From an uncultured Methanosarcinaceae archaeon (GTDB lineage Archaea; Halobacteriota; Methanosarcinia; Methanosarcinales; Methanosarcinaceae): 64,000 bases of DNA. Shown here piece after piece: positions 9,257 through 64,000 of this stretch (positions are counted from its first letter, which is position 1; each line of letters starts with the position of its first letter). The notes under the pieces are model-generated. The model was not told the DNA's origin, ran no database searches, and saw nothing but the letters and a program-made list of their open reading frames with translations. The stretch spans positions 576,001-640,000 of the forward strand of contig CAVTET010000001.1 of NCBI GenBank assembly GCA_963733675.1, written 5' to 3'. Position numbers and translations under genes: made by a program.

Positions 9257-9324
9257 CCCTCTACAGCAATTTCTCACTCAAATATTAATGAATTAAGCAT
9301 AGATTATTTGATCCTTATGGAATT

Positions 9325-9949
9325 TTTATTTCAGTCGAATACCCCGCAGCTCGCTGCAGGGATGGAAAATTTCCCCGATAACCGTTGTTAAATAATAAAT
9401 TTCTATTTTTGCTACATTTGTACTGTAAATGGAACTAAGACGTGCAAACCATTGTGTATATAATATAAGATACCACATGGTTTTTTGTTTGAAGTACCGT
9501 AAAAATCTTTTTTAGGGACAGAACTCATAAACTTTTTGAAAAACGTATGCTTTGAAATTAGTGAAAGATACTGTTTTGAGTTTGATACAATTGGTAGTGA
9601 TGGTGATCATGTACATATTTTTATTGGAGCTGAACCAAAGTATTCTCCTTCAAAAGTCATGCAAATTATAAAAAGTATTATAGCAAGATAAATCTTTAAA
9701 CAATGCCATGAAATCAAAAAACAGCTTTAGGGTGGTGAACTGTAGAGTGATGGAGGTTACATTGGAACTATAGAAGATGGAACAACTTCAGATGTTATCA
9801 AAAACGATGTTGAAAATCAGGGAAACAGGGAAGAAAAAGAAGCATATCAGCAAATGAAAATACTCGATTTTTAATAGCCATTACAACCAGAGTGGTGGCG
9901 CGAACATACCCCGTTGCTTGCAGCGGGGTGCGCCAGCACAACTTTGATT
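9325..9949 (+). mobile_element. tnpA: IS200-type element, tnpA (9429-9874) inactivated by a frameshift and two TAGs
   Basis: YHMVFCLKYRK, HUH motif DHVHIF, QL*GGEL*SDGGY; subterminal hairpins CCCCGCAGCTCGCTGCAGGG and CCCCGTTGCTTGCAGCGGGG. Confidence 0.9.
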
Positions 9950-11005
9950 TAAAAGGATTGAAAAAATGGGAGTTAAAGTGGGAACAGTATACATGGATAG
10001 AATATTTTTTAATACAAGAGTCATCTGAAAACTAAATGAGCCTAAACTGAAATTTGTAATTGCAGCTAAATCTAATAAGAAAAGCAAGGCGATACCTGAA
10101 AAGACCCGAACGAAATATGGATATGCGTCCAATATATTTGAAACTAAATTTCAGGGAGGGGGATCAACTTTCAACGTTGTATTAATTTGGGCTAAGAAGA
10201 AAGTATATCTAATGTTTGCTACAACCAAAGAAGGGATCCAATAGACGCATTTATAAAGCAAATACCTGAAAAATACAAAAAGAGATGGAAACTTTATATA
10301 AGTAATAATTGATTTTGAGATCCGAAACTGCTCTAAGTCAACTGTTGCAAGGACGTTATTCTTTGTAGTACTGCATCATACGCATCATTTTGAATATGCT
10401 AAAGTCAATCCTTAAGATTGCAGCATATCAAATGAAATCAATAATCAAGCCTGATATCATCAAAACATTAACCTGCGTGATTGAATCATTATGCAATGTT
10501 CCAGTCAAATTATTCCTGGATACTTAAATAAATTTAGTCGAGAAAGAAGTTGATGCTATGCGCTCGATTAAGAGAGATATAATTCTCAATAGAATCTCAA
10601 AAATTACTAGATGAGTTAGTAAAGACTATACACAATTTTCACTTTAGAACTTTAAATTACTGAAATTTAGAGAGACTATTATGTGAAATATTATCATTCT
10701 GGACGAAATAAAGCGCTCTTTTGTGACTAGTGCAGAAGAACTGTACAAGAATAAGAATAGTCATTCTGAACTATAGGGTTTTACATCTAAAGTATTTTTT
10801 GCACCTAGAGTCTAGCTAAAATGGGATTTTAGGTGCAAAGCCACAACAAAAATATTTAAATATAATAAATACTAACTAAATGATAGTAATTATATGGTTA
10901 TGTATTCGCTCCTCAATCCAAACGTATGTGAAGAGACTGAAAATAGTGTAGATTAATCTCGAATAAGTTTGTGATCTGGGTAAAAAATATCGGAGGAACG
11001 TATAC

Positions 11006-13862: not shown

Positions 13863-14296
13863 GCATAAAGTGTTTCAAAGCTTATTTGGCATGAAAGTAC
13901 ATGATGTTCTCTTCCTCACGTACACTGTTTCTCATTTTTCCCCATAATTAAGAGTATTCTACGATTTCTTTATATATTTTCATCGATTGAGAATAATCAT
14001 CAAAGATTATATTGGTAATAGAAATACTTTAGACTTACAAATAAGAATAGAGATGAATTGAGATTTCAGTAGTTACTTAGCATTAAGAGATTATTTAATT
14101 AATTACAAAGAAATCTGATTTATTTATTTGTTTATTTATTTATTTATTTCGAAAGGAATATTATATATCTCTTTTATATGCTTATTGTCATATATGATTA
14201 TAGTAGGATAAAGTTCTCAATGTGACAAAAACATCTAACGATCCTTAAGTCAAACACTCTTAATGAGATGAAATTGTTGCGTTTATTCACTCAAAC

Positions 14297-30944: not shown

Positions 30945-31259
30945 ATTTATTTCAGTCGAATACCCCGCAGCTTGCTGCGGGGATGGAAAACTTCCCCGAT
31001 AACCGTTGTTAAATAATAAATTTATATTTTTTGCTACATTTGTACTGTAAATGTAACTAAGACGTGCAAACCATTGTGTATATAAAATAAGATCTCACAT
31101 GGTTTTTTTGTTTGAAGTACCGTAAAAATCTTTTTTTAGGGACAGAACTCATCAACTTTTTGAAAAACGTATGCTTTGAAATTAGTGAAAGATACTATTT
31201 TGAGTTTGATGCAATTGGTAGTGATGGTGACCATGTACATCTTTTTGTTGGAGCTGAAC
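30945..31259 (+). mobile_element. tnpA: IS200 element, left half (interrupted at att core)
   Basis: Near-identical to 9325-9634; similarity stops after GTTGGAGCTGAAC. Confidence 0.92.
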
Positions 31260-31284
31260 TAACATAAATAACTGTATTGTTTAT
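31247..31284. other. attL (core plus element arm)
   Basis: GTTGGAGCTGAAC-taacataaataactgtattgtttat; arm is an inverted repeat of the attR arm. Confidence 0.88.
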
Positions 31285-31309
31285 CTAGGATAAATTCTAT
31301 TAAGTTAGT

Positions 31310-32445
31310 ATGAGTAATTCGAAGATCTTAAATGATTACTTAAGGAAGTGCCAAGCAGATGGACTTACGGAAGAGACAATTGCAACTGCTGAATATACAC
31401 TTATAAAGTTCATATAATGGTGTGGAGATCGAGAATTAAAGGAGTTTACAACAGACGATGTTTACGATTATCTGGATTTTATAAATGCCTATACATACAT
31501 CAAAGCTGGTAAGGCCGTTAAATACTCACCTGGTACACAGCAACGAATTAGAACTGTTTTGAAAAAATTCTTGACCTTTATAAATCATGAACTAGGAGCC
31601 GTAATAAAGTTACGAACGCTAAAAAATGGGAAAATCCCCGAAGATATTTTGACTCGCGAAGAAATTGAAAAATTAATTGATTCATGTCGAAGTAACAGAG
31701 ATCGGGCTATAATTGCTACTTTTTATGAAAGCGGAGCTAGAAGGGGGGAATTACTAACAGTTCAACTTAAACATGTGACTTTTGACGAGAATGGGGCAAT
31801 CCTCAATATCCAAAAAGGGAAAACAGGAAGTCGACGCGTTAGGCTTGTATTAGCTTCATCTTACCTTAAACAGTGGATTGACACGCATCCATTAAAGAAT
31901 GATCTTGATGCTTACTTATTCTGTTCGACTAATTCTCCTTTTGGAGTTATCACATTTGTAGGACTTGCAGATCAACTACACAAAATAGCAAGTAGAGCAG
32001 CTATCCAGCCAAAAAGAGTTTATCACATGCTTTTAGACATGCCAGAGCAACCCACTTAGCCGAACAATTACCTGAACAACTTTTGAAAGAATATTTAGGC
32101 TGGACAAAATCAAGTAATATGGCGAGTATATATGTGCATATGTCAGGCCGAGATGTGGATAATGCTATACTTAAGTTGCATGGAATCGAGACTGGAGAAG
32201 CTACCAAAAAATTCATTGTTAATAAATGCCCACGTTGTAAGGAAATGAATCCAGAAAATGCTTTATTTTGTTTTAAATGTGGGCTGCCACTTACGCAGGA
32301 AACTGCAACAACAGTAGAATTCGTAAAAACCGATTATATGCAACTCGCAAATCTAGACGAAATTAGAGAAATGAAAAATACATTAAAACAGGAGCTAGAA
32401 GAAATCTCTAAGCTGAAAGAGATAATGCTTAAAGCTGGAAAATGA
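31310..32445 (+). pseudogene. Tyrosine integrase with C-terminal zinc ribbon; TAA at 31415 and frameshift near 32025
   Basis: ESGARRGE, KGKTG, reconstructed HAFRHARATHLA, LGW...YVH, CPRC/CFKC. Confidence 0.9.
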
Positions 32446-32475
32446 TTTATATATAATTTATAAGGAATTATAATT

Positions 32476-33666
32476 TTAAGGAGTCCTTACTTTTGCTATA
32501 CATTTTTCAAAGAAATTATTTAAAAAAACACCATAATCTTCTGATGAAGGCGACCTGTATTTATCCGGCTTCGCATCCATTATATTAAAAAATTTACTAT
32601 TTTCTTGCACGAATTCTTCTTCTTCGATGGAAATTGTTCCGTCTAGAATATCTCTCTGAAAGCAGTGGTCGAAAAGTAGCTCAATACCTATTATTTTTCT
32701 GTCGTGCTCAAAAGTTATTATTTGCAGTATTTCACGACACGTCTCTTTCCAATTTTTATCCACTAAGATTCTGTTAAATATCTCTTCCGACATTTTTTTT
32801 ACCAAATTAGCCTGGTCTACTAGCATTTCATTAGGTTTTTCTAGTAACTCTGTATGCATATCTTTAAGCACGTTCAGAGCTATTATTTTAGATGCCATTT
32901 TAAATGATATATTTGCTATCATTAATTTATAAAGTTCTTCAATTGATATTTTTCCATATTCTGTCGGCAATGACACTTCTACTATTTTCTGAAACGTTTC
33001 TTCTAACATCTCAATATCTGCGGATAATTTCAAAGATTTTTGACAAATCTTCGATTTCAGTGAATCGTTTATGCATTCATTATAAACATCCAGCCAAATA
33101 TTTGGGTTGGCTATAATCTTTTTCATGAATTTAACGTAAAGTTTATTAGTCGGATTTTTGACAGTTAATACGGATGTCCAGTAAGTAGCGCCTATGGATA
33201 ACCTACAAATTTCGTCAGCTTTGTTATATAAAGTTTCAACCTCGTTTTTTAAGCATATATCAAAAAAGGAAACCGATAAAAGCAACTGGATACTGTACTT
33301 CTTAGCAATAGTAGTATCTAGATTTAAACCGCGTTGTTTGCTGATTATATTTAACGATTTTTTATATATGTTTAATCGTATGTCAGGGAACTGAATTCTG
33401 ATATTTTTTAAATTTTCAATTCTTTTTATGTCCCACCTATTAGCTAATCCAGGCTTCGCTGGGATTTTTTCTATACACGAATAAGGGCGGTATTGCAAAT
33501 CTCTAAGATGCTTTTTTATGTTCCCTTGATCTTTTATCTCGTATTCTCTCGCCAGAAATTCTCTTATTTCTGGCTCTGGAACAGGTCCATCACTACTTAT
33601 AATAAATTCAAGTATTCCAGCTTTGGCCTCATTCCATTTGAGGTGATCTCCTTGACTTCTTCTCAT
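32476..33666 (-). CDS. Hypothetical protein with probable N-terminal winged-HTH (element regulator)
   Basis: ILEFII...EPEIREFL...IKKHLRDL; divergent from the AbrB-like gene. Confidence 0.6.
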   Translation of the reverse strand: MRRSQGDHLKWNEAKAGILEFIISSDGPVPEPEIREFLAREYEIKDQGNIKKHLRDLQYRPYSCIEKIPAKPGLANRWDIKRIENLKNIRIQFPDIRLNIYKKSLNIISKQRGLNLDTTIAKKYSIQLLLSVSFFDICLKNEVETLYNKADEICRLSIGATYWTSVLTVKNPTNKLYVKFMKKIIANPNIWLDVYNECINDSLKSKICQKSLKLSADIEMLEETFQKIVEVSLPTEYGKISIEELYKLMIANISFKMASKIIALNVLKDMHTELLEKPNEMLVDQANLVKKMSEEIFNRILVDKNWKETCREILQIITFEHDRKIIGIELLFDHCFQRDILDGTISIEEEEFVQENSKFFNIMDAKPDKYRSPSSEDYGVFLNNFFEKCIAKVRTP

Positions 33667-33810
33667 ATGCTATAAAATATGCTATATGGTATAATAAATC
33701 TATGTATTATTTCTTTATTGCAATTACTGCTCATTTTTTAATAAAAACCATATGGTATTATTATTCTAATATTTTTACGGTATGTTTAAATATTAAAATT
33801 AACATGTTGT

Positions 33811-33996
33811 TTGACGGTGATGAAAATCAATTTCAATTTCGGAAAAAGAAAAATTCAAAAAGTTAGGTATTCCTTCTTAATTCCTTTGCCTATTGATTGG
33901 GTCAACAGCATGAAACTTGGTAAAGGTAATTTGCTGGAAATTGAAATGCAAGAAGACTATAGTTTGAAGATAACCCCGGTTCCACAGGCCCGGTAA
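33811..33996 (+). CDS. AbrB/MazE-like DNA-binding protein
   Basis: RKIQKVRYSFLIPLPIDWVNSMKLGKG..LEIE. Confidence 0.75.
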   Translation: MTVMKINFNFGKRKIQKVRYSFLIPLPIDWVNSMKLGKGNLLEIEMQEDYSLKITPVPQAR

Positions 33997-34052
33997 GACT
34001 CTGAAGGAACCAGGAGCACAACACCAACCAACCAAAAGAAGGAGATGTCGGC

Positions 34053-34202
34053 ATGAATAATATGACACCAAAAGATATATCTTTTACCTCATGGGCGAAA
34101 CAAATCTGCATCAAACATACTGAAATTTTAGATCGCATGAGAAAAAGTACTGATCCACTGGGAAGGGCAATAGCAGTTAGAATTATAAAAACGCAGGAGT
34201 AA
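34053..34202 (+). CDS. 49-aa hypothetical protein (missed by ORF track)
   Basis: GGAGA RBS; MNNMTPKDISFTSWAKQICIKHTEILDRMRKSTDPLGRAIAVRIIKTQE. Confidence 0.6.
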   Translation: MNNMTPKDISFTSWAKQICIKHTEILDRMRKSTDPLGRAIAVRIIKTQE

Positions 34203-34716
34203 TTGAGCTTTAAAAAGAGAAATAGGGTATGTAGATTACCCTGGATCACACAAAGGGAAGGAAACTGATTGAAAAAGTCTTACAGTAGATAATATCATTT
34301 TACCTTATTTAATCCTTCTATGTGTGATTTTCTCTTCTTTTTGCTACTGCGGGAGTTGAAAATATGTCATTCAACCCAGACGAGTTTTTCTGTAAACGTT
34401 TGTATATTTTATTTAGTGTCCGGATGAAAGGAAATAAAATCCAGCTCAATATAAATTATTATAATAAGTTTATTCTTTATAAAGCTTTCACTAAAGTAAA
34501 CTGGTTGCCGTCCTATATATGGATCACACGTTCTGCATTTTCAAAGCTCAGGTGGTTCTGAATGACTGCCCGAACCTTCATTAAACCTTGCAAGAAACAG
34601 TCTTCTTCTATCTGCAGTATAAAACTCTGCTCTGAATGTTGTGAAGCGCGGGAAAAGGAGAATTTTATGAGGGCTTTATTCATTTTAAGCCTAATTTTAC
34701 CCCAGGAAGTTTGACA

Positions 34717-36452
34717 ATGTCTTCGGATTCTATTTTCGCTCAAATGGATATTGTCAAAATAATTAGATCTTATGGGATTAACCTAATCCGAGAAGGTAAT
34801 ATGTATTACGGATCAATTCCACCTGTGGGGCAAACCGGTAAAAGTTTACATGTTTGGGCTAATGCAAATACCTGGTTTTGCAACAAAAACCATGTAGGTG
34901 GGGGTATTCTTGATTTTATTCAATATATAGAGAGAGGACTTACTAAACGGCAAGCACTTGAAAAAGCGGCAGAAATTTCAGGAGTTCAACTTGAGCCATT
35001 CTCTGATGAGCAAATTAATAAGCTTGAAGAAAAAGAAGATGTTTATAACACTCTTACTGCACCTGCAAATATCTACCACACAAATTTGACTAATGATCGG
35101 TACAGTTTCATTTTCAATCGATGGGGAATTACCAGAGAATCAGTGGATGATTGGAACTTGGGATATGCTTCCACTGAACGAAATCTTGAAGGCATGGATC
35201 CTAAAAACTTGATCAAAGCTGGCTTAGTGAATATTACTGATACTGGAAATATGGGGAGAATTCTATAGAGGTAGAATAATTTTTCCTTACCTTATCGATG
35301 GCACGATTCAATATATGGCAGGCAGAGTAACTCCTGATACTCCAGATCATGATAAAGGAGCGAAATACAAATATCTGCGAATTAAATCTGAAACAAAAAA
35401 TGAACAGATATCTGAATTTATCAACAAAAAGGGATTTTTTTGGGGAAGATCGAATAAAGAGTGCAGATTTCTGCTTTATTACTGAAGGACTTGCGGATTG
35501 TATTGTAGCCAATCAATTTGGCTTTCCTTGCCTAGCTTTAGGTTCTACGGGGATATCAAAAGAATGCCAGGAACATTTGATTCATTTACTAGGCGAAAAA
35601 AAATGTGTCTACCTATGCTTTGATAACGACGAAAACAAAGCAGGGCAGAAGGGAGCCATAACAATAGGACAAATTCTTTTCGATGCCTGTATTCAAATTA
35701 AAATTATTGATCTCCCTTCTGGATCAAAAAAAATGGATATTGCAGAATTTATGAAAGATAGAGAAGCTAAAGACTTTGAATTATTAAAAAAAGAGGCTTT
35801 TAGCTTCATAAAATATACATTAAACCTCTGTTCTGTATCTGACTCTTTGCCAGAAAATTACAAAACTGCTGAGTCTTTTGTGTGTGATAGACTTCTTAAT
35901 ATCCAAAATCTATATAGAGATGCCTATATTTCCGATGAGATAAAACAGCACTTCAATTTCCAAAATAAACAAAGAGATAACCTTATTAAGCAAGCTAATG
36001 GGTGGGTGCAAAATGGAAAAGAAAATAATAAAGTCGTAGAAGACGACAATGGAGTCGAAGAAATAGACCATCTTACGTTAGATTTGATTACATCCCTTGA
36101 AATTCAGAAAGAAACAGGATTGTTAGCTTGTGAAAAATGGGTTAGTAATAATAAGATCAGTATTGCAAAAGTCCCTCCAGAATTATTAGCCAAAAAGTTG
36201 GTGGGCCTAAGGGAAAAAAGATATAACTACAGCAATTTTATCCATTCAATTAAAGAAACGTTTCTGTTACAGTCGTATGAAATAGAAGAAATTTACCAGA
36301 AAATACTTGGAATTAATAAAGGGTATTATAACGAAAAAAAACGATTAAATAAAATCTTAATCCGGATTCAAAATTATTCTTCACATATAAGAGCGAAAGC
36401 TCAAGATTTATTAAAGTATGGGGACCCCCAAAATTTCATCTATCAAACTTTT
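34717..36452 (+). pseudogene. Bacterial-type DnaG primase (Zn-binding-like + Toprim), frameshifts near 35250 and 35430
   Basis: WFC...GGGILDFI, LGYA, EFYRGRIIFPY...YMAGR (alternate frame), ITEGLAD, LCFDNDENKAG, KMDIAEF. Confidence 0.85.
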
Positions 36453-37239
36453 AGGGCGATTCAGTTGTAAATATCCAAATCTTCAGCAGCAGCCTAGTAA
36501 ATACCAAAAATGGAGAACCATATTTACAGCTGAGCCTGGAAATAAAATAATATCTTTTGACCACTCTCAAATAGAGCTTAGGATATTAGGAGACAAAGCA
36601 GTTGAGCTTGCTTTTATAGAAGCTTTTGCTGCAGGTATGAATATTCATACCCTTACTGCTTCTAAGATCTTTAACAAGCCATTTGATAGTATTCAAAAAA
36701 CTGACAAAGAACGCAGTATAGCAAAAACGATTAATTTTGGTTTACTTTACGGGATGTCCGCTAAAGGTCTGATGAAAAAGTTAAAAACAGACGCTGGGAT
36801 TGAACTAACAGAAAATCAGGCTAAAGAGTACATTCGTACTTTTAAGGTAGCTTATCCTTTCATAAGTAGTTATATGGAAAGAATAAGTCAAGAAGGCATA
36901 CAAAATAGAGAATTAAGAAATGCTGCAGGTAGGCTATTAATTATCGATGACGATATAGATGAGAGTGCTGCCGGTAGGGAAGCAATGAATCTACCTATTC
37001 AATCACTATGTGCAGATATGATTAAGGAAGCTCTTCCCCAAATCCAAGCTAAACTTGAGCCTTTAGGTGTAAAATTCATTAATATCGTTCATGATGAGCT
37101 CGTATTTGAGTGTAAAGATGATCAGGCTGAGGAAGTCTGTACTTTTGTAAAAACAATAATGGAAAAAGTAGGGAATAATTACTTAAAGCATATTCCTTGT
37201 GTAGTTGATGTTAAATCCTCAGATTATTGGCAGAAATAA
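36453..37239 (+). pseudogene. Family A DNA polymerase palm/fingers domain, N-terminally truncated
   Basis: GRFSCKYPNLQQQP, FDHSQIELR, RSIAKTINFGLLYG, NLPIQSLCAD, VHDELV. Confidence 0.9.
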
Positions 37240-37606
37240 ACAACATCTAGTCTTTTGATAATGTCTACTTCATCTTTTTCTATTTCTGGTTCTAACTGAT
37301 ATTTCATGTGGAAACAAGTAATCTATCTTACATAATTAAATTTAAAAATGTTGTTTTTTAACGTCAATTTTATTAGTTTTACCCAAAAATAGGAAACTAT
37401 ATTGAGAAAAAAATAGTTCGTTTTAAATATCTTTTATAAAAATTCAAATTTATTCCATCGAGATTTTCTCCATAACCAACTATTCAAGTGTTAAAATGTT
37501 ATTGTTTACCATTACCATTTTGCATTGATGATAACGTATAAGTACTAATAAATAGTATATAGTAGCGTCGTTTCTTGAAAATTGACGGGCTGGTAGATCG
37601 CATAAC

Positions 37607-37831
37607 ATGAAAGGTGATAACACAAGATTTCAACAGAAATTTACAGAAGATATGTTCCTGAATGCTCTATCAATTGACAGCATCAAGTCCAGTGCGACTA
37701 TTATGAATCTAGTAGGATGTAGCAGGTCCACAGCTAAAAACATGCTTTACAAGCTTGTAACTGAAGGGAAAGTGAAAAAAATAGGAATTGAAGGCGACGG
37801 TTACGGTTGGCAGAAAGTAAAAGATGATTAA
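37607..37831 (+). CDS. Small winged-HTH protein
   Basis: IMNLVGCSRSTAKNMLYKLVTEGKVKK. Confidence 0.7.
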   Translation: MKGDNTRFQQKFTEDMFLNALSIDSIKSSATIMNLVGCSRSTAKNMLYKLVTEGKVKKIGIEGDGYGWQKVKDD

Positions 37832-38117
37832 AATGAGTTTTATTGACAACAAGAAGCAAGAAAGCGATCCGGAATTTGTGTTGCAAATAATGCCGGAATT
37901 AAAAGAAGATTATCTCAAAGATCGTCCGTGCAAGTTGGAAAAAGATTCGATAGAGATTTGGAAAGTCGTAAGTGTACTTAATGGAGATTGTGACCTACCA
38001 ATCGAGCAACAATCTTTTTCATGCACTCAGGTACTTTTTGATAAAGAAGGCGAAGATAGATATTTAAATTTATGCGAACAAGCAATGCAAGAGAAAGGAG
38101 TTGCGTTTGATCAATAA
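37824..38117 (+). CDS. Hypothetical protein
   Basis: Overlaps the stop of the previous gene; operon-like. Confidence 0.55.
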   Translation: MIKMSFIDNKKQESDPEFVLQIMPELKEDYLKDRPCKLEKDSIEIWKVVSVLNGDCDLPIEQQSFSCTQVLFDKEGEDRYLNLCEQAMQEKGVAFDQ

Positions 38118-38782
38118 TTGGGTACTATTCATAAATTGGATTGCACTATAGTCAATGAAGGTGGTGATACAGAAGTAAAACCTGTGTTTTTGCTGATTGA
38201 TTCAAAAATTTATCATGAGATAGATTGTAGACATCTACCTGAAGAGTTGTTAAATAAGTTGCTATAAATTGTATGTACCTTGTTTTAATAGAATTGTGGG
38301 GAAAATCAAAATCTTCCTTACTCATTTAGTATTTTAGTATCATTTCTTTGATTATGTGATCAACATTAACATTATTTAGCTTAAGTTATCCTAACTACTC
38401 TAAATACCCTAGACTAAAGAATATGAAATTTATGTGAAAACATTATCCTAAAATTTAAGTACTATATAGCAAATATAAGTTATATATTTTTTATGTGATA
38501 AAAGTGTATGCCAAATATCTCGTGGTTAGTTACCGTGCATGTCAGTAAAGATCATGGGAAATAAAAAAGGTCAAAAAAATGACTTATTATGAGATCAGTG
38601 GTGAGACTTTTATTTAAAGTTTGGTTTGTGAATTATTGCCATACTCAAAACAATCGCTCTTAGAGCCGGAGACCGGCTCAGATTTGATAGCTGTGAACCT
38701 CACTTCTATACAAAACAAAACGAACTAAATATTCAAATACAATACTAGTTAATATTAATTAAAAAGTAAACAAGGTGATAAT

Positions 38783-39234
38783 ATGACTCGTCCTTCTAAA
38801 CTCACTCCGGAAATACAAAAAAGAATCGGTGATAATATTGCACTCGGTTTGACTTATAGATTGGCTGCCGAGTCGGTTGGTATAACCTATAAAACGTTAA
38901 ACGAATGGAATCAGAAGGGGCAGACTGAGAAATCTGGGAAATACTATAAGTTTGCACAATATATCCAAAAATACAATGCTAATGCCGCAAAAGCTCTTTT
39001 GGAACGCATAAATGAATCAGCAAAAGCTGGTGATACGCAAATGTGTACTTGGGGATACTTGAACGCCGTTTTGCGTCAGACTTTGGACGTCGGGTATATA
39101 AGAAAACGAATGTTGTTGCAGAAAATTTGAATCAGAATGTTGAGATAATAGTTCAGGACACAGATGCAATTCGAGAAGAAATTCTAGCAAAGTTTGATCG
39201 GGTTGAAGAAAGTAATGAGTTATTAACTAGTTAA
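38783..39234 (+). pseudogene. HTH/terminase-small-subunit-like protein with frameshift near 39050
   Basis: RPSKLTPE...AAESVGITYKTLNEW; WILERRF motif split across frames; AGGTGA RBS. Confidence 0.65.
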
Positions 39235-39317
39235 GGTTTTTCATTCTAACTTAATCCATTTTTAATAGAAAATATTTTACTATTTATTCTTATCAATGGG
39301 CATAATTGTAGTCGAAC

Positions 39318-39528
39318 TTACCAAAATCTCAACCAAGGTTTCTTAGCTCTCGGAGCTTCAATTGACTTCTGAGTGATGAGTGTTTGAACTTGCATCATAT
39401 AATTCGTGTGCATGTTCTTGATATCTTCAAGTTCTTTTTTAATGTTGCAATATGATCATTCAAAAATCTGTTTTCAGCATCCATGGACTCAAATTCTTTT
39501 TTGTATCCTGATGTCTCACAACTATCAT
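39318..39528 (-). pseudogene. Coiled-coil protein C-terminus truncated by MITE
   Basis: KELEDIKNMHTNYMMQVQTLITQKSIEAPRAKKPWLRFW-TAA. Confidence 0.65.
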
Positions 39529-39678
39529 GGTTCAGTTGCAAAAATAATATTTCTGCATTTTGACACTAGAATTCTCACCTTTAAGTGCCATTTTCTTTCT
39601 AATGAAAATGATTAGTTATCCTAATTATAATGTTTTTCACTGGTTTTGTAAAATAGTCAGATTTTTTGCAACAGAACC
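39529..39678 (+). mobile_element. 150-bp MITE with IS6-type TIRs, copy 3 (more diverged)
   Basis: ggttcagttgcaaaaa...ttttttgcaacagaacc. Confidence 0.88.
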
Positions 39679-39769
39679 TATTTTGCTTACATTACTTCAA
39701 AAAATTTATATTCACGCAATTTTTCCCTACGGCCCTATAAGTTCCCAAAGTCTTATCCAGTAGCAAGCT

Positions 39770-41098
39770 ATTGGGTATTTGACTAAAATAAAGAAAGTAT
39801 TAGGTTTTTCTCTTTACTAGAAGTACTTCCTTTTCTTTTCCAATAATTTCAACTTTTTCTTTAATTCCTATTTCCTCCTCAGACTAGCTTGCCAGTATTC
39901 TCCATTATACCGGACAAGTCCTGACTTTCCTTGTCCCAGAGGATCTATTGTTTGGGCTGTATCACCGATGATTGTTCCTATAACTGGCTTTTTCTTTCGG
40001 ATCTCGGTTACTTTATAAATTGCGAAGACAAGGAAGAGCCCGAAGACAATCGTAGGGATGATAACTGTCAAAGTCATAAGTCTTATGAATTCGCGAGTAT
40101 AGATGTTTTCAGCTCCCGTAGGTACAAAGAGTACACTTCCTATTATAAGACTGATGAAACCGGCAAACCCGAAAATTCCGAAGCCTGGAATTTTAATTTC
40201 CAGGATAAGAAGCCCTATCCCTATAATTATGAGAAAGATTGCACCCACATTTATATTAAACCCTGTACCTATCAACCCAAGTACTATCGCAATGATTCCA
40301 AAAACTTCTACCCCTGATCCAAGATTTGAAATTCCAAAGATAATCCCAGAAAGCCCAATGATTAGGAGAAGAGAGAATTGGATTTGAGATTAGCTCCAAG
40401 AAAGCAAGAGAAAGAGAAGGTTCATAGTTTTCAATGCTGAAGCTTTCAGTTCTGAAAATCTTTCCTTTCACAACCTTTCCGTTGATCTGGATCAACAAAT
40501 CGGAGATAGAAGGAGCTATATATTCTATTACACCTGTGTCTAGTGCTTCTTGCGCGCCAAGATTTTTGTTTTTGGTTATAACTTCTTCTGCAAAGGTCTC
40601 ATTTCTTCCGTGTTTACTGGCGATTGTAACCGAATATTTGACAAGGGCATTTATTATCTTTTCGTCTTCTATTGGTTTTGTCCCTTCTGCAGATATCTAC
40701 ACTGGCTGCGCTGAACCAATTACAGTGAAAGGAGCCATTGCAGCAATATCAGTCCCCATCAAAATAAAAGTACCAGCTGACTAAGCTTTCCCACCCTCAG
40801 GCACATATCCAATAACAGGAACCGTTGTATTCCCAATTCTCTTTATGATTGCCTGTGTTTCTTCCACCCCTCCTCCAGGTGTGTCAAGGCTAATTACAAG
40901 AGCTTCAAAGCCTTCATTTTCAATTTTCGCTATTGCATTAGCTATGATATCATCTGAAGCCGGGATGATGGCTCCTGAAATTTTAAGCACAAGCATCTTA
41001 TTGTTAGATCCTGTCGCAACAATGGAACCAAAATTGGCTATAAGAATGGAGCATAAGAATAAAACAAAGAGGAAACGTGTAACCCTTTCCATAAGCAT
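39770..41098 (-). pseudogene. nfeD: NfeD membrane-bound serine protease with two in-frame TAGs and frameshifts
   Basis: LDTPGG, GKA*SAGTFILM, GSAQPV*ISAEG, GEYWQA; adjacent to stomatin. Confidence 0.85.
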
Positions 41099-41151
41099 GT
41101 TTGTAGGTCCTTTCTTGCCCTTTACTTTTCTTCAGACTCTTGTTTTCATCT

Positions 41152-41931
41152 TTATTGTTCTTTCTTTCTAGAAATAGTCTGAGATAAGGCTGCTATGTTT
41201 CCGGTTTCAAGAGCTTGAGACTGAGTAACCACTATTAAATTCTTTTCACTAGCAATCTCGACAAGAGTCTGCAATTCCCTAAGTTTGATCGCTGTCGGTA
41301 ATTCCTGATAGAAAGCTGCTGCTTCCGACATTTTCTGTGCAGCTTGAGATTCTCCTTCTGCAAGGATTATTCTTGAACGTTTTTCTCTTTCAGCTTCAGC
41401 TTGTTTGGCAATAGCTCTTTTCATCGTATCGGGCAACGATACATCTCTAATAGTAACCGCTGTAACCTTAATTCCCCATGGGTAGGTGTACGCATCCAAG
41501 AGTTCCTGAATTCGCTTGTCGATACGTTCTCTCTCAGAAAGCAGTTCGTCGAGTTCCATCTGACCCAGCACATCCCTAAGTGTTGTCTGTGAAAGCGTGA
41601 ATGTTGCAAACTTATAATTCTCAACCTGAGTTACAGCGGCTCCCGGCTCAATTATCTTATAATAAACAACGGCATCGACATCAACCGTAACGTTGTCTCG
41701 CGTAATTACTGCCTGTTTAGGAATATCAATAGTAACAACTCTAAGGTCTACTTTAATCACTTTATCGACAATCGGAATAATTAGAAAAATACCAGGTCCC
41801 TTTACTCCACTAAGACGACCTAGCCTAAAAATAACTACTCTCTCATATTCGTTAACCATTTTTATGGATTGTGAGAGTATTAAAAATACAACTATTAATG
41901 CTGGAAACAACAAGGCACTAAAGCCAACCAT
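41152..41931 (-). CDS. SPFH/band-7 stomatin-like protein
   Basis: EYERVVIFRLGR, QTTLRDVLG, AKQAEAERE, LRELQTL. Confidence 0.93.
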   Translation of the reverse strand: MVGFSALLFPALIVVFLILSQSIKMVNEYERVVIFRLGRLSGVKGPGIFLIIPIVDKVIKVDLRVVTIDIPKQAVITRDNVTVDVDAVVYYKIIEPGAAVTQVENYKFATFTLSQTTLRDVLGQMELDELLSERERIDKRIQELLDAYTYPWGIKVTAVTIRDVSLPDTMKRAIAKQAEAEREKRSRIILAEGESQAAQKMSEAAAFYQELPTAIKLRELQTLVEIASEKNLIVVTQSQALETGNIAALSQTISRKKEQ

Positions 41932-41986
41932 AATCTACCACATCCAGTTTCATAACCTTTAGTTTCGTGTTTTATAACATCTAGTT

Positions 41987-42475
41987 TTATAATACTTGAC
42001 TGAGATTTAATAATACATTTTCAGCAGTTTCTTTCCTTACAACAAGGACCGCTATTTTCGAGTGTTTGACCACCTTTTCTGCTACGCTTCCAATAAGGAA
42101 TCTCTGAATTGCGGATTTCCCGTGTGAACCCACAACGATAAGATCAATATCGTTTTTTTCTGCAAAGTCAATAATCTCAACTGCAGGGCTTCCTTCTAGA
42201 ATAATGGATTCGACCTCAACATTTGTGGCTCTACCAGCGTTTTCGACATAAGTCGTTGCTTCCTGACCTTCTTGCCTGAGGTGCTCTCTCATTGCTTTTT
42301 CCCATTCTGCATCTATATATGGAGATATTGAATAACCCCCTACTGCAATCACATATGTAGCATACAGCTTTGCCTCGCTAAACTTTGAAATTTCAATTGC
42401 AGAATCAACTGCTTTTCGAACTAGTTCCGAGCCGTCGGTTGCAATCATTATCTTCTTGTAAACAGTACTTTTCAT
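41987..42475 (-). CDS. Universal stress protein
   Basis: KKIMIATDGS, DLIVVGSHG, IGSVAEKVV. Confidence 0.93.
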   Translation of the reverse strand: MKSTVYKKIMIATDGSELVRKAVDSAIEISKFSEAKLYATYVIAVGGYSISPYIDAEWEKAMREHLRQEGQEATTYVENAGRATNVEVESIILEGSPAVEIIDFAEKNDIDLIVVGSHGKSAIQRFLIGSVAEKVVKHSKIAVLVVRKETAENVLLNLSQVL

Positions 42476-42710
42476 ACCTGATTCTCCTTTTCTCTTTTTT
42501 GTTTCTTTCTTCCGGTTCTCAGTTTTATTTATCAGATAACTGCTCCAATTTCACCAATAAAGAAAAATCCAAAAATACATGAGTGTACTCGAGAAGATTA
42601 CACCAAAAATAAGCACTAATATGAATAGCAGTTTTTAAAACATTTAAATAAATATTTATAAAAATAATTGCGGTGCGAAACAAAGTTCTCTACGCACCTT
42701 TGGAAAGGCC

Positions 42711-43088
42711 TTACTTTTTCGCTACAACTATTACAGTTCCTTTCATATAAGGATGAATAGAGCATTCATAATTATAGGCTCCGGGTTCGGTAAACATATA
42801 TTCATAATTTTGTCCTTTGGATATTATTCCAGAAGTGAATATGGTCCCGCTTACTGCATGGTCAGCTGAGTCCATATTAGTCCATTTTACTGTATCCCCT
42901 ACAAATATTTTGACCGATTCAGGCTTAAAAGCAAAGTTCTGAATGATCACATCTACAATCTGACCACTGCTAGATATGCCACCATTGCCTTGTGCACTCA
43001 TTGCTATGCCTATCAACGATACCACAAAAAAGACTAACAGCAAAAGAATCAGTACATTTTTCATTATACTAGATAATTGTTTAAACAT
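42711..43088 (-). CDS. Secreted cupredoxin (plastocyanin/amicyanin-like)
   Basis: GDTVKWTN...H; YECSIHPYMKG type-1 Cu ligands. Confidence 0.9.
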   Translation of the reverse strand: MFKQLSSIMKNVLILLLLVFFVVSLIGIAMSAQGNGGISSSGQIVDVIIQNFAFKPESVKIFVGDTVKWTNMDSADHAVSGTIFTSGIISKGQNYEYMFTEPGAYNYECSIHPYMKGTVIVVAKK

Positions 43089-43772
43089 TCATTTCACCAG
43101 TTTGTTAAAATAAATAATTTTAATGGATTTTGTCTTCTGTGACCTATTAGATCTACCACAAATCAATTGGTTGATAAAGTACATAACCAAAATTTAATCA
43201 TTTCCTGAAACTTTTAAATGTCAAGTATAAATTCTTTTTATTTAGATCGTTTTTTCTACTAATTCTATATAAAATTTAGAAGCATCTGATAAAATTGAGG
43301 TGGGTCTCAAAATTTTTTAGGCTAAAGTATACAAATATTTTCTTTGAATTATTTAAATTTAATTCTAAAAAAAATAGTATTCAAATAAAACTTACTTTCC
43401 CATGAAATATTTTAATATTGAACAACAATTTGATATTAATGAATTTTTATACTTTACCTTTCTAATGACAGGGTACCTAAAAATCTTGTAGGGAAAATCT
43501 GATCGACTCTGCACACTTTTTATTTGTCACAAATTATCAATCAATCACCAAAGAAGTACTAAATTAATATGCTATTTATTGCTTTTTAATTACCTTAAAT
43601 AAGACTTACTCATCCAAACTTCCACATCAAACAATTTTGTCAATATGATACAAGTTTAATTAATTTTTATTACATCCTTCCAATAGATACGATTTTAATT
43701 TGTATTAACAATATTAGGACTTACTCATTTGAAGCACAAAATAAATAGCATTAAACCAATTATTTTATAAAA

Positions 43773-44474
43773 TTAAAATTTTAACTGCGACGTTAAAGAT
43801 ATACCTTGGGAACCTTTATCTCGGAAACCCTTATTTTGACAATTTTTAAATCCGTCAATGTATCCTTGTTTATACTTCACATTGTATCCGTCAGCATACC
43901 CTTTATCGTAGGGAATATTGCTCTTCGATGCCATATTTATATTTGTGTTTCCTCCGTTATTAGGTAATCCAGTCCTACAATCTTTAACTCCGGCGGTATT
44001 TCCGTCGTTATATCCTACATTTTTTGCTTCAGTTGTTCCAACTATGTATCCGTCCGAATAAGTTGTAGTTATGGGAGTGAAAACCTGAAGACCTTCGCTT
44101 TGACAATTTTTGTATCCGTCAATATATCCTTGTTTGTACTCTAGCTTGTATTTAATATTGTGGCCATCAGCGTATCCTATATCATAGGCAGCATCGCTCT
44201 TAGGTGCCATGTTGATGTTTGTGTTTCCTCCATTATTAGGTAATCCACTCTCACAATCATTAAATCCAGCGGTATTTCCGGCGTTGTATCCAGCAGTATT
44301 TGCATCATTTTCTCCGATTGCGTATGCGTAATTATAATTTTGTTTCGACTCGGGCCCCCACCGCAGGTTCAATGATGCACTTATCGATGCAGCTGTCAAT
44401 GACATTACAAAAAAAACTAATAGCAAAATAAACAGTAATTTTTTTACTCTGGCAAATGTTTCCTTATCCATCAT
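43773..44474 (-). CDS. Secreted protein with two tandem GYxxG-rich Cys-containing repeats
   Basis: Signal peptide; GYNxGNTAGxxDCxxGLPNNGGNTNINMA...YKQGYIDGxKNCQ occurs twice; start uncertain. Confidence 0.7.
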   Translation of the reverse strand: MMDKETFARVKKLLFILLLVFFVMSLTAASISASLNLRWGPESKQNYNYAYAIGENDANTAGYNAGNTAGFNDCESGLPNNGGNTNINMAPKSDAAYDIGYADGHNIKYKLEYKQGYIDGYKNCQSEGLQVFTPITTTYSDGYIVGTTEAKNVGYNDGNTAGVKDCRTGLPNNGGNTNINMASKSNIPYDKGYADGYNVKYKQGYIDGFKNCQNKGFRDKGSQGISLTSQLKF

Positions 44475-45526
44475 TAGATCTCCGTGTGTTTGCAAAATTA
44501 GATATGTTTCTACAACAACTTGTTTGCTTACCGACTGTTTACTATTAAGTAAACTTTTCATCTTCAGATCTACTACAAGAATGTATAATTACCATCGAAT
44601 CGTGAAGGATGGATGGTTCAGTAGTCATTTATAGAGTTAGCAATATTCCTTAAAACAGTATTTTTTTGATTTTAAGAATATAAGTTATCAAATGTACTAT
44701 TCATCTTATATACAATTACTATAATATTTTTACTTCATTCTAATTTTTGATATGAAAAAATATATGTAAGCAAAAATTACATTCACAAATTAAATATGAT
44801 AAAGGCCTATAATTCTTGGGATTAGTGCCAATTTACCTACTTTGATCAAAATTAATTCCCAAATAAATAATACTTTTAAGCACAAATTGAAGAATACATC
44901 CTAACATTAATTCGAGTTATTCAAACAAAGTTTCAAAGCATAGTAAAATAAACTAATGTATAAACATAATTACATCACAGTTAACGAAAAATTGTCAAAT
45001 AAATTACCGAGTTGAAACATTTCATGGAAATCATCCTTTTCTCTTTCTGGTCTCGATTTTGATAAAGATCGTACTACGGTTTCTTCCAGAATAATTATAC
45101 CCGCTAAACCATCTACGAAGTATGCGATCTAAACCCTCCTTAGCAACTCTAAAATCATTTAAGGGAGCAAATATCTATTTATGTAACCGGTTGAGAACCT
45201 TACATCACGCCTATCAGTAGCCAATCCGTTGGTCATATTTATGTGCACAAGATTTGATACTACATCTGAATTCACGTGTCTGAGAAAATACCAAGAGATA
45301 TATTCCTCACATGGAGATAAAAGTGAAATCAATCCTATAGTTTTGGTATCAGAAACCGTAACCAGACTGAAACTAGGTACATAAAGTCAAACATAAATTC
45401 ATAAATCAGAAAGATATTGGATGGATATATTCTACTTGCGGTCTTGCAAAGTCACCGAATAAATATATGTTTATTATTTTACTGAAGAAATATTATTTAA
45501 TCTTCAAGCAATAATAAACGAAAGCT

Positions 45527-45564
45527 GTAAACAATATAGGTATTTATGGTAGTTGGAGCTGAAC
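45527..45564. other. attR (element arm plus core)
   Basis: gtaaacaatataggtatttatggta-GTTGGAGCTGAAC. Confidence 0.88.
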
Positions 45565-45878
45565 CAAAGTATTCTCCTTCAAAAGTCATGCAAATTATAA
45601 AAAGTATTATAGCAAGATAAATCTTTAAACAATACCCAGAAATCAAAAAACAGCTTTAGGGTGGTGAACTGTGGAGTGATGGAGGTTACATTGGAACTAT
45701 AGAAGATGGAACAACTTCAGATGTTATCAAAAACGATGTTGAAAATCAGGGAAACAGGGAAGAAAAAGAAGCATATCAGCAAATGAAAATACTCGATTTT
45801 TAATAGTCATTACAACCAGAGCGGTGGCGCGAACATACCCAGTTGCTTGCTGCGGGGTGCGCCAGCGCAACTTTGATT
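45552..45878 (+). mobile_element. tnpA: IS200 element, right half
   Basis: Near-identical to 9623-9949, including the right-end hairpin. Confidence 0.92.
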
Positions 45879-45950
45879 GAATCTATTTATAAAGTTCCTT
45901 TATTGTACCATGCATATGTTATCAGATTTACTTATTTAGATAAAATACTT

Positions 45951-46697
45951 TTATTGTGCCAAGCTTTTGAATTGTGGGTTAATTTCAATCGCTTTATCAT
46001 ATGCTTTTTTTGCTTCATCGGATTTATTCAAATTATCAAGAGCGGCTCCTTTATTATACCAAGCCATTGGATTCTGTGGGCTGATTTCAATTGCTTTATC
46101 ATATGCTTTTATTGCTTCATCAGATTTATTTAAATCATTTAGAGCAATGCCTTTGCCTGTCCAAGCCATCGAATCCTGCGTGTTGATTTCAATTGCCTTG
46201 TCAAATGCTTTTATTGCTTCATCTGATTTTCCTAAATTCCCTAGAGTGTATCCTTTACTGCCCCAAGCAATTGGATCCTGTGGGTTAATTTCAATTGCTT
46301 TATCATATGCTTTTATTGCTTCATCTGATTTATTTAATTCATTTAGAGCAAATCCTTTATTTTTCCAAACCGTTGAATTCTGCGGATTAATTTCAATTGC
46401 TTTGTCAAATGCTTTTATTGCTTCATCTGATTTGCCTGATAGGCCTAAATCAATTCCTTTAATATTCCAAGCCGTTGAATTATGCGGGTTAATTTCAATC
46501 GCTTTATCCTGCATTTTTATGTCATTTTCAATTGCTTTATTTAAATCAGAGACATTGTTGCTGCTGGAGTTCGGAACATCTGTAAGTTGTGCTGCACCTG
46601 CTATACTAACAAGGATCAAAAACGCCAGTGTAGTGATCCCTAGAACTTTCAGAATTGTATGCTTTCTACTTATTTTATCATATTTAGTTTCGTTCAT
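45951..46697 (-). CDS. Secreted TPR-repeat protein
   Basis: Five or more 34-aa repeats W..KG..L..L.KSDEAIKAYDKAIEINP. Confidence 0.9.
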   Translation of the reverse strand: MNETKYDKISRKHTILKVLGITTLAFLILVSIAGAAQLTDVPNSSSNNVSDLNKAIENDIKMQDKAIEINPHNSTAWNIKGIDLGLSGKSDEAIKAFDKAIEINPQNSTVWKNKGFALNELNKSDEAIKAYDKAIEINPQDPIAWGSKGYTLGNLGKSDEAIKAFDKAIEINTQDSMAWTGKGIALNDLNKSDEAIKAYDKAIEISPQNPMAWYNKGAALDNLNKSDEAKKAYDKAIEINPQFKSLAQ

Positions 46698-55872: not shown

Positions 55873-56106
55873 GAGAATAGCAATGCTATAAAGGTATTAT
55901 AAGGATTAGATTTTATTGAGGCTGTTCACATGCTGACAGGCCACAAAGTAAAACAATGTAAATAAACTTTAAATTTGAGAAGCACTTCAAAAATTGATAT
56001 AAATAAAACACTCTATATTATAAATTTTAAAGTTTTGGTTATATTAACAATTCTGTTTCGTAGAGCTATACAACTAATTTGTTTGGGAATAGCGCCTTGA
56101 AAAAAG

Positions 56107-56971
56107 GGTTCCGTTGCAAAAAATTCAAAAAAATATGTAAATCTATAAGTAATGAATAAAAATCAAAATATTCAAGGAAAATGTACTAACATTATAAAAC
56201 CATACCAAACAATTGATTAATGTATTTGACTTCATTACGAACCGAGTAATTGAGATTATTGACTTGTCCTTTTTTGACCATATTCATAGCTTCAATTCCT
56301 TTTAAGGTTTTATTAGCAGATCGAAAAGACTGAAATCCTAACATTGGATTAACTATCCGCTTTATAGATCTATGATCTTGTTCTATAATGTTATTCAAAT
56401 ACTTGATTTGTCTAATGCCTACGTTTTTAGGTAGTATTTTATCATTTTTCAGTTTATCTATAGCAGGTGGATAAGCTGGATTCTTATCAACTGTTATTAC
56501 TCTTGGAATTTGATTATGATTAGAACTCAAAGCTTTCTTAAAGAATCTATTCGCTGCTATTCTATTTCGTTTTGCACTTAACATGAAATCAATTGTATCT
56601 CCATTTGAATCAACTGCTCGGTAAAGATATTTCCATTTACCATTTACTTTGATATAGGTTTCATCAACTCTCTACGAATCATTTGTGGGTCTTAAATGTC
56701 TTCTTATTCTTCGTTTCTATTTCAGGAAAATATTGATGTACCCATCTCATTATAGTACTGTGATCAACTTGAATTCCTCTTTCTATCATCATTTCCTTTA
56801 AACTTCTATAGCTCAATGGGTATTTTAAGTACCATCTTACATTCAATAAGATAATTTCTCCTTCATAATGCTTCCATTTAAAGGAATGAGATAGCATGAT
56901 AGCATATTACTACCTTTGGTTTTCTTTTTATTTTATTATATCATTAGAAAGGATTTTTTTGCAACGGAACC
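56107..56971 (-). mobile_element. IS6 copy B (865 bp), transposase with +1 frameshift and TAG
   Basis: TIRs; appears to be the exact reverse complement of copy C. Confidence 0.95.
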
Positions 56972-63655: not shown

Positions 63656-64000
63656 ACATTTTGTGATTTACTTTTCTAATAGCTTTAAGTCTGTGTTTTT
63701 TCAGACGAAGGTTCAAAAACTTTTAAGTTTGTTTTTGGACCATAATTTGAATTGGATGCATGATGACTTTTAGGTAGCCATCCATTTCAAAATCGCGAAA
63801 AAAGCTTAGTATGCAATTTCGAAAGAATAAAAATTGGGATTTTTTGTATATGTGTTGTCACAACAGGGTTATAAGCATTTAACCCCATTTGAAGTAAATG
63901 CGCCAAAGTGTTGTGATTCGTGTTTAATTCTAGGTATAACTCTTAAATAAGTTTATACATATATATGTCCACATATCCCTTATATAGCTAATATATTTAC

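Follow-up and report, generated by a model that had tools for sequence, protein, structure and literature searches.

The question raised by this locus is how an element came to sit exactly between the two halves of an IS200-like copy, and what selected that position. The window, as we call the whole stretch of 64,000 nucleotides that was analysed, belongs to a 3.92-Mb assembly of 15 contigs from an uncultured Methanosarcinaceae archaeon, referred to below as the element's own genome.

Anatomy of the element and its integrase

The integrated element is a decayed copy of 14,298 bp (31257..45554, + strand), and BLAST against its own genome detected related copies and fragments. The left half of the interrupted IS copy, which forms the B side of attL (30946..31256, + strand), is 93-95% identical to 9325-9638 and ends with TTTTTGTT-GGAGCTG. 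The right half, on the B' side of attR (45555..45885, + strand), is 96% identical to 9611-9910, and repeat matching within the window also gave 96% identity for 45540-45839 against 9611-9910. An uninterrupted paralogous copy lies at 9325..9960 (+ strand). The first-pass annotation had taken the GGAGCTG at 9626-9632 for an unoccupied site, and a three-way alignment bore this out, as this copy is uninterrupted and contains ATT-GGAGCTG-AAC once (9623-9635). The disrupted host repeat was found to be IS200-like (Pfam Y1_Tnp, E 8.1e-9, 36.1 bits compared to a cutoff of 23). Its transposase frame is decayed, with in-frame stops, and the insertion point lies just past the HUH motif, between HVHIFI and GAEPK. 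No tRNA gene was found in the window.

The element ends in a left (P') arm of 28 bp, AACTAACATAAATAACTGTATTGTTTAT (31257..31284, + strand), and a right (P) arm of 28 bp, GTAAACAATATAGGTATTTATGGTAGTT (45527..45554, + strand), which are complementary at 24 of 28 positions. The annotation had described the joined ends as a long palindrome with arms matching at 24 of 27 nucleotides; the inverted repeat stood, and its length had to be corrected. By inspection, the repeat ends at 28 bp and the sequences further inward are not complementary. An inverted repeat of 24/28 has a chance probability of 2.2e-10 at two given places; taken over every pair of positions in 64 kb, this amounts to an expected number of 0.46. 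The arms are considered non-random because they lie exactly at both IS breakpoints and recur at the ends of related elements.

A 13-bp repeat, GTTGGAGCTGAAC, spans both junctions, at attL (31247..31259) and at attR (45552..45564), and contains the 7-mer GGAGCTG at 31250-31256 and at 45555-45561. The proposed 7-bp core was therefore present at both junctions, but the identity between the junctions was measured at 13 bp and not at 7 bp only. Taken alone, the 7-mer is nothing special; with 2.95 occurrences expected, it is present 7 times in the window, a count that was also reached in 3 of 100 shuffles.

The tyrosine recombinase that the annotation had postulated was found in the element. Its gene (31310..32445, + strand) begins 26 bp inside the left arm and carries two lesions, a TAA at codon 36 (31415) and a frameshift near 32023-32060; at 31415 the public contigs of four runs read G, and they have one additional C after 32023. 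Since its own integrase is broken, the window copy of the element is dead. Four other integrase copies in the own genome are open and encode 377 aa. Three of these four are at a contig start or end, which shows that the element breaks the assembly. An alternative genetic code was considered for the in-frame stops and rejected, as the statistics for open reading frames with reassigned stops showed no clear gain. The stops are damage, because the other integrase copies are open under table 11.

An intact integrase, P0001, matched Phage_integrase in Pfam (PF00589) with 82 bits compared to a cutoff of 27.1 (E 5.7e-23), and had an N-terminal SAM-like domain and a C-terminal zinc ribbon as further domains. 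The window's own N-terminal fragment scored 42.2 bits for Phage_integrase. The best NCBIfam match of P0001 was archaeal XerA (NF040815, E 1.2e-33), with 116.9 bits compared to an equivalog cutoff of 220; by these scores, the integrase is classed as a relative of XerA and not as an XerA orthologue. Among solved structures, its best relative was the archaeal XerC-like recombinase 4a8e (E 4e-13), with which the RHxxR and Tyr regions align. The motifs sgaRrge, pHafRHarath and siYvh of P0001 align with the corresponding motifs of 4a8e, and we take their R...HxxR...Y to be the catalytic residues of tyrosine recombinases.

At E <= 1e-10, 684 proteins match P0001, and 66 of the 121 Methanosarcinaceae genomes searched, the own genome included, have a match at E <= 1e-40. 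The cultured relatives named by NCBI include Methanosarcina vacuolata at 75% identity and M. acetivorans and M. thermophila at 46-48%. A split of the integrase gene through an attP inside it, as with the 'suicidal' integrases of the SSV type, was not seen, and integrated copies retain an open integrase frame of 377-378 aa beside attL.

Other genes of the element were detected with Pfam. Remains of a replication module (34711..37239, + strand) comprise a CHC2 zinc-finger primase, a Toprim domain and a fragment of a family-A polymerase, and further matches were to NfeD/SPFH, a universal stress protein and a cupredoxin. The scan for other recombinases covered 20 ORFs of at least 90 aa, two of them just outside the element, and 8 unexplained ORFs of at least 65 aa in the window copy. 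Neither a second recombinase family nor a DDE transposase or Cas1 was found in these ORFs with Pfam, PHROGs and NCBIfam. None of the 8 unexplained ORFs was transposase-like, and one of them resembles a small terminase subunit or an HTH protein. The Pfam results for the window copy included no conjugation genes.

Arm conservation and target sites

The annotation had staked its reading on arms that are conserved at the ends of related elements around a core that varies. This pattern was found at 69 related ends in four genomes, where the arms were kept while the 7-mer varied. In the own genome, BLAST located the first 200 bp of the element at 6 places and the last 200 bp at 21. A search with the 28-mer arm, which allowed up to 7 mismatches, gave 29 ends, 7 of the left type and 22 of the right type. 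The left-type ends are followed by the integrase gene or its remains. Six of them were the copies in which BLAST placed the left arm upstream of the integrase, and the seventh, at C1:75977, is more diverged.

Ends were also collected by way of the integrase protein, without regard to the arms. Twenty loci were found in this manner: 14 were readable with an integrase of at least 85% identity, two were cut by contig ends and four had integrases of 47-58% identity. The left arm was upstream of the integrase in all 14 readable loci (the fragment L036 counted), and the sequence upstream of the four more distant integrases differed. The left arm was also present in both of two loci with integrases at 75% and 70% identity. 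In these relatives the inner 13-14 bp were best kept, with the block CCTATA(T/C)TGTTTAT, and the outer part, by the crossover, had drifted towards the local target.

On the right side, the last 200 bp of the element matched 38, 29 and 23 places in three related genomes, and the arm was present in 29 of the 30 right-end loci retrieved from them. The part common to most right-end BLAST matches is a module of about 115 bp including the arm (45440..45526, + strand, inward of the arm), which was aligned in 22 of 23 right ends of the own genome. In the exception among the 23, at C12:80898, no more than about 25 nt of the arm remain. The module had no Rfam match at E <= 1, and a promoter and terminator scan gave nothing above shuffles with models of bacterial type, whose coverage leaves archaeal promoters outside. 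For the pooled ends, conservation was high along the full arm; this figure is partly circular, as ends were gathered by arm similarity (at most 7 mismatches), and kin copies of the element are not independent events. Independent support for arm conservation comes from the integrase-anchored left ends and the 200-bp BLAST matches.

Right ends outnumber left ends by about 3:1. For the orphan right ends, no left partner with the same 7-mer was found within 120 kb, and a left boundary was not reached in the upstream DNA from two related genomes. Some of these orphans must be old, because one site is occupied in two genomes (L060 and own C1:778373) whose flanks have diverged by 10%.

The 69 pooled ends represent 59 distinct flanks, of which 18 are of the IS200 type and 41 are other sequences. 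They contain 51 distinct 7-mers, and 38 of these spacers are among the 41 non-IS flanks. As the annotation had suggested from a single site, the targets have only a short dyad in common, GTT-N7-AAC. AAC was present at +8..+10 in 22 of the 41 non-IS flanks compared to a background of 1.6% (P of 4e-29); by position, A was found at +8 in 28, A at +9 in 33 and C at +10 in 36. The edges of the spacer were biased as well, with T at +1 in 24 and A at +7 in 30 of these flanks. On the other side, GTT was present at -10..-8 in 13 of 14 attL flanks. The target dyad is the mirror of the innermost arm bases.

Among the targets, a single fixed position within IS200-like transposase pseudogenes is preferred. 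The orientation of the element relative to the IS was identical in 20 of 21 distinct junctions (P of 2e-5). Flanks in IS copies resemble the arms further out as well, and several attR sites fit the joined-ends pattern within 3 mismatches. Every one of the recent element copies in the own genome is in an IS copy with the spacer GGAGCTG. This spacer is present in only 8 of 23 empty GTT-N7-AAC sites in IS copies (P of about 0.03 for 4 independent copies), a preference in which the effect of the spacer is not isolated, as IS copies that have GGAGCTG in common also have common flanks. The spacers in IS copies form a chain of single-base steps: GGAGCTG, GGTGCTG, GGTTCTG, GTTGCTG, GATTCTG and GATTCTA.

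Junction spacers and empty sites

Of 10 end pairs, 8 had one and the same 7-mer at their two junctions. In addition to the window pair (GGAGCTG), these were L026/L042 (TCCATAA), which lies inside a second multi-copy family; L023/L051 and L028/L054 (both GGTTCTG); L017/L046 (GTTGCTG), for which a single empty IS copy of the own genome is the orthologue of both halves; L029/L116 (GATTCTA), which is now inverted with its ends 73 kb apart; G119 (GGAAGAA), an 18,480-bp element with arms pairing at 18/28; and G101 (TTCAGCT), with arms at 19/28. The ends L018/L061 agreed over the 5 bases visible ahead of a contig end. In L025/L038, a single base of the 7 separates attL (GGTGTTA) from attR (GTTGTTA), and it is attR that agrees with the empty site. 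The ends of one 22.8-kb element, L020/L050, have unrelated 7-mers (TAAAGTA and GATACAG). This pair was considered as a test of heterology and found uninformative, as its flanks are repeats that are neither contiguous nor syntenic in the own genome.

Empty orthologous sites contained the spacer once. One of them, at own C1:460136-460142, reads GTA-GTTGTTA-AAC and is occupied in another genome, G002; the two flanks of the G002 element overlap by exactly 7 bp at these coordinates. Another, at own C4:689722, reads TAGTT-TATACCA-AAC and corresponds to an insertion in G001 with a flank identity of 97.9%. Over 11 comparisons of occupied with empty sites, 13 mismatches were counted in 77 spacer positions, and the flanks had diverged by 2-17%. 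The junction 7-mer is thus the target's own, since its mismatch rate is close to the flank divergence. At one host site that is occupied in two genomes, the spacers are CTAATAT and TCATTCA, which differ at 5 of 7 positions in a flank that is 94% identical (P 1e-5 to 5e-3).

Identity between the junctions extended beyond the 7-mer. In the window it covered 13 bp; for the four other pairs compared the range was 10-16 bp, with 16 bp for L023/L051 and 15 bp for G119. Arm bases that are specific to a lineage equal the bases of its target, as seen with AACC... in the IS-borne lineages of G003 and with AACAAAAA in G119. The cleavage positions could be spaced by 5 to 13 bp because of this 10-16 bp identity and the biased positions +1 and +7.

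These results bear on what the annotation had called transposon-like target flexibility. The element family does use many different targets, but single events need not have been promiscuous, with equal 7-mers in 8 of 10 pairs. Site-specific integration with a matched spacer fits better, because of these equal pairs and because recent copies are only in IS copies with the same spacer. The observation that started this work is confirmed with the corrections given above. Its interpretation is largely right but supported in part, as it goes further than the data on the length of the overlap and on transposon-like behaviour.

Mechanism of integration

We consider it reasonably likely that the element integrates through conservative site-specific recombination of the lox/dif kind, catalysed by its own XerA-like integrase, that the spacer must match the target and that a change of spacer re-targets a lineage. 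Conservative recombination is favoured because the tyrosine integrase is the sole recombinase detected in the ORFs scanned, and no other gene has a fixed place by an end. It is also favoured because the target half-sites copy the arm termini, as if one protein binds all four, and because the junction identity exceeds 7 bp and arm bases equal those of the target. Further reasons are the same orientation of 20 of 21 junctions in IS copies and the confinement of recent copies to IS copies with GGAGCTG. Three observations fit this explanation poorly: the one-base difference in L025/L038, the unrelated 7-mers of L020/L050 and the shared host site at which two genomes have different spacers, CTAATAT and TCATTCA. 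The 38 spacers among the 41 non-IS flanks would require many spacer switches if identity is needed.

In the free circle, the two 28-bp ends would lie opposite each other on either side of an asymmetric spacer of about 7 bp, which gives a putative attP of about 63 bp. Integrase protomers would bind the arms. The chromosomal partner would need only the innermost bases of each arm, GTT and AAC, and a spacer matched to the element's, at whose edges T and A are favoured. Strand exchange within the shared 7-13 bp would leave one copy of the spacer at each junction and fix the orientation. IS200-like pseudogenes may serve as a multi-copy, dispensable 'safe harbour', whose flanks are also similar to the arm ends. 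Lineages would have moved to dozens of other GTT-N7-AAC sites through changes of spacer; tolerance of a single mismatch would be enough for moves between IS subfamilies, and the one-base difference in L025/L038 may be a spacer step caught in the act.

The length of the arms could be explained in two ways. They may each hold two adjacent binding sites, or contacts of the zinc-ribbon tail may offset a weak attB. Arm length and arm conservation would be compatible with two binding sites per arm. The predicted arrangement is a high-affinity site at 15-28 bp from the crossover, with a weaker site of the core type next to the crossover, and the extra contacts, from a second protomer or from the zinc-ribbon tail, would offset the minimal attB. 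A reading of each arm as two tandem 13-bp sites was rejected, as the similarity (8 of 13 positions alike) is weak and was noticed post hoc.

Several searches were made for the free attP. No circular junction was found in the own assembly, where the pattern search gave one spurious AT-rich match. In five related genomes, the attP pattern matched only attR sites in IS copies, and viral contigs gave 0 matches. A metagenome candidate, two loci of one sequence, was rejected as a palindrome between bacterial housekeeping genes that is unrelated to the element. The contigs of four public runs contained neither a 45554-31257 joint nor a skip of the element; a loose end at 45552 in these contigs was traced to other, empty IS copies. 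All these searches either needed near-exact matches or used contigs that drop rare forms, and the lack of a circle joint in the public-run contigs is no evidence against excision.

A competing explanation draws on the bacterial elements Tn916, CTnDOT and Tn554, which have a tyrosine recombinase, many end-like insertion sites and a staggered exchange region of 6-7 bp. If the present element were a tyrosine transposon of the Tn916/CTnDOT kind, it would cut with a stagger of about 7 bp, tolerate heterology and enter any GTT-N7-AAC site, and the 7-mers would be partly carried-over 'coupling sequences'. The many loosely end-like insertion sites (41 non-IS flanks with 38 spacers and only the short GTT/AAC dyad in common) are indeed a likeness to Tn916 and CTnDOT. 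The attL of L025/L038, one base off both attR and the empty site, could also be expected from such an element. The same is true of the shared host site whose 7-mers differ at 5 of 7 positions in a 94% identical flank, which repeated use of the site would also give. The unrelated 7-mers at the two ends of L020/L050 would fit as well, but their flanks are repeats without synteny in the own genome, which makes a later rearrangement likely. In the available text of one study, IntDOT is reported to depart from the rule of strict identity (PMC2817482). On the other hand, heterologous exchange should leave unequal 7-mers, and 8 of 10 pairs have equal ones. Moreover, the agreement of occupied 7-mers with orthologous empty sites (13/77 mismatches) is about as close as that of the flanks, and recent copies are confined to one spacer. 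The equal junction 7-mers, their identity with the empty site, the lack of conjugation genes among the Pfam results for the window copy and the archaeal host all differ from Tn916 and CTnDOT. We therefore regard this explanation as unlikely, though it deserves to be kept in mind.

Another possible explanation takes the 28-bp ends for terminal inverted repeats and the 7-mer for a genuine target-site duplication. This duplication would arise from a staggered cut followed by fill-in, in the manner of DDE transposons and casposons, through an enzyme other than the integrase or an activity yet to be described. The inverted ends and the fixed 7-bp repeat at both junctions, which is single-copy in empty sites at many unrelated targets, would suit this. 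A repeat of 7 bp that is single in the empty site also has the look of a target-site duplication under conservative recombination. The element has its own primase and polymerase genes, as self-synthesising transposons do (PMC4779613 for casposons, in the part available). However, no DDE, Cas1 or other transposase family was found in the ORFs scanned, and the sole gene kept by an end in all copies is the tyrosine integrase. Target half-sites that mimic the arm termini, junction identity of more than 7 bp with arm bases matching the target and an orientation bias of 20:1 in IS targets also stand against it. This makes a target-site duplication quite improbable. A chance origin of the inverted repeat, or a structural role outside recombination (as a hairpin or terminator, for instance), would be in line with a predicted fold of the joined 63-nt site at -17.1 kcal/mol as single-stranded DNA and with the 0.46 or so repeats of this quality expected in 64 kb. 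It is next to impossible all the same, as the arms coincide exactly with the IS breakpoints, are found again at 69 related ends and are always beside the integrase gene on the left.

Conservative recombination of the lox/dif kind would place the element beside several well-known systems. With Xer/dif, Cre/loxP and Flp/FRT it would share inverted recombinase-binding arms around a short asymmetric spacer that sets the orientation, and partners that are matched; by sequence, the integrase is closest to XerA. Cre and Flp require spacer identity between the partners. The TTATG/CATAA in the arms presumably resembles bacterial dif arms; this likeness was rejected, as the orientation is opposite. A review, in the text available, gives dif as a pair of 11-nt inverted repeats around a 6-nt spacer and the core of lambda-type sites as having a 7-bp overlap (PMC8371274). 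The element differs from lox and dif in its arms (28 bp compared to 11-13 bp) and its spacer (7 nt compared to 6), and in its unequal partners, a long attP and a minimal attB of GTT-N7-AAC. It differs from Xer in that the integrase is on a mobile element, has a C-terminal zinc ribbon and integrates rather than resolves dimers. XerA/dif is a single chromosomal copy, whereas sites of the element-end type are at 29 places in the own genome.

Among archaeal elements, those of the pNOB8 and XerA-like, non-suicidal kind are similar in that an intact integrase gene adjoins attL after integration, in the direct repeats at the junctions and in the cryptic cargo with a replication module. More generally, an integrase by one junction, a short identity at both junctions and its single presence in the empty site are as in classical elements that integrate by attP x attB. 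The archaeal integrative elements reviewed in the available part of PMC8371274 mostly use tRNA genes as targets. This family differs from them in using an IS200 transposase pseudogene and many other sites, and in having a variable 7-mer between conserved arms instead of a long tRNA-derived identity. The word 'zinc' is absent from the main text of that review. The casposon of Methanosarcina shares the host group, inverted ends, a short junction repeat and a polymerase gene of its own (PMC4779613, in the part available); the present element differs in the lack of a detected Cas1, and in its family-A polymerase with a DnaG-type primase, its 7-bp repeat and its tyrosine integrase. Among the Methanosarcina mobile elements listed in the available text of PMC4158269, none is like the present element. 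No description of this element family or of IS200-targeted integration in archaea was found in the full-text literature, a search that has subscription journals outside its coverage.

According to the accessible portion of the review on archaeal integrases, nearly all of those characterised to date target tRNA genes, and in some of them integration disrupts the integrase gene itself (PMC8371274). This integrase family does neither. What appears new is the combination of a long, palindromic, lox/dif-like attP with a minimal attB, a spacer that would often have been re-set and a liking for dead IS200 genes. The favoured landing place is inside another mobile element, and the spacer has changed many times among close relatives. 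More tentatively, the integrase may read its target mainly through the 7-bp spacer, so that swapping the spacer would re-aim it. The family could then be a naturally re-targetable one with a minimal attB and a safe harbour in dead IS200 genes, and, in evolutionary terms, something like a first archaeal tyrosine-recombinase 'transposon'. The architecture of the att site is simple, symmetric and readable directly from genomes. If spacer identity sets the target, it would make an easy model for changes of integrase specificity and possibly a tool for Methanosarcina genetics. Relatives at 46-75% identity are present in cultured Methanosarcina, which makes bench tests feasible. The element family also explains part of the heavy repeat load of its own genome and of the breaks between its contigs.

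Element ends and their junctions

Right-type ends of the 14,298-bp integrated element outnumber left-type ends in its own genome (22 vs 7). Across this genome and three related genomes (G001-G003), left ends and integrase genes are about three times rarer than right ends, which consist of the arm and an approximately 115-bp conserved module. Some right ends occupy the same site in two genomes and are, therefore, old. One host site carries a right end in both our genome (C12:54202) and a related one (locus L053, G001:C10:~12017). The flanks of the two copies are 94% identical, but the 7-mers abutting the arm mismatch at 5 of 7 positions (CTAATAT vs TCATTCA). Another 7-mer, GATTCTA, is rare and was found to be common to the left end at locus L029 (G003:C8:~399.4 kb) and a right end on the same contig (G003:C8:326389-326418). 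These two ends are separated by 73 kb in inverted orientation, a layout that suggests a chromosomal inversion after integration.

Target families

The IS200-like family represented at window positions 9446-9889 gave 123 BLAST hits in the genome and about 76 sites that reach across the point of insertion. In-frame TAA and TAG stops are common to the copies read here, which are also without a start. Because of these features of the reading frame, the family's spread may have been that of a non-autonomous derivative. At loci L026 and L042, the target belongs to a second multi-copy family, whose gene is interrupted close to its 5' end; 72 matches to the right flank of this insertion were found in our genome. 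Other right ends (among the sites listed with this target are C1:805415, C4:601466 and others in our genome) adjoin a different IS200-type subfamily at its hairpin end, with the flank AGTTAAT-AAC.

Related integrases and a bacterial palindrome

Integrases about 43-51% identical to that of the element were retrieved from seven genomes (L076-L082) and have a different conserved upstream boundary. Similarity begins at GTGCCTGTGATG, which is preceded by TCAATT in most copies. These loci may represent a sister family of elements that uses a site of its own. The search with the joined ends returned two metagenome contigs (L067, at 2411-2439, and L068) with a palindrome in bacterial DNA unrelated to the element, where it lies between genes for a conserved hypothetical protein and a malic-enzyme-like protein. 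The palindrome agrees with each arm end over 14-15 nt, with a 6-nt gap in between, and is most likely a chance resemblance, given the very large collection.

Other genes and repeats in the window

At 38783-39130, a 115-aa ORF has a hit to phrog_4102, a family of phage small terminase subunits, with E 1.2e-15. It is one member of a gene family whose diverged copies number in the dozens genome-wide. Directly outside the interrupted IS, a gene for a TPR-repeat protein lies on the minus strand (45951-46697) and contains five tandem units of 102 nt at 45973-46584. A 150-bp MITE-like repeat is located inside the element (39529-39678) and also at 9102-9257 and 13712-13867. Its copies across the genome exceed 60 by a good margin, at 70-88% identity, and word depth in public contigs peaks at this repeat. 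Lastly, a perfect inverted repeat of 872 bp (56100-56971 and 62791-63662) flanks 5.8 kb. The pair looks like either a composite-transposon arrangement or the product of recent gene conversion. Relatives of this repeat with 87-93% identity are seen at 20866-21675.
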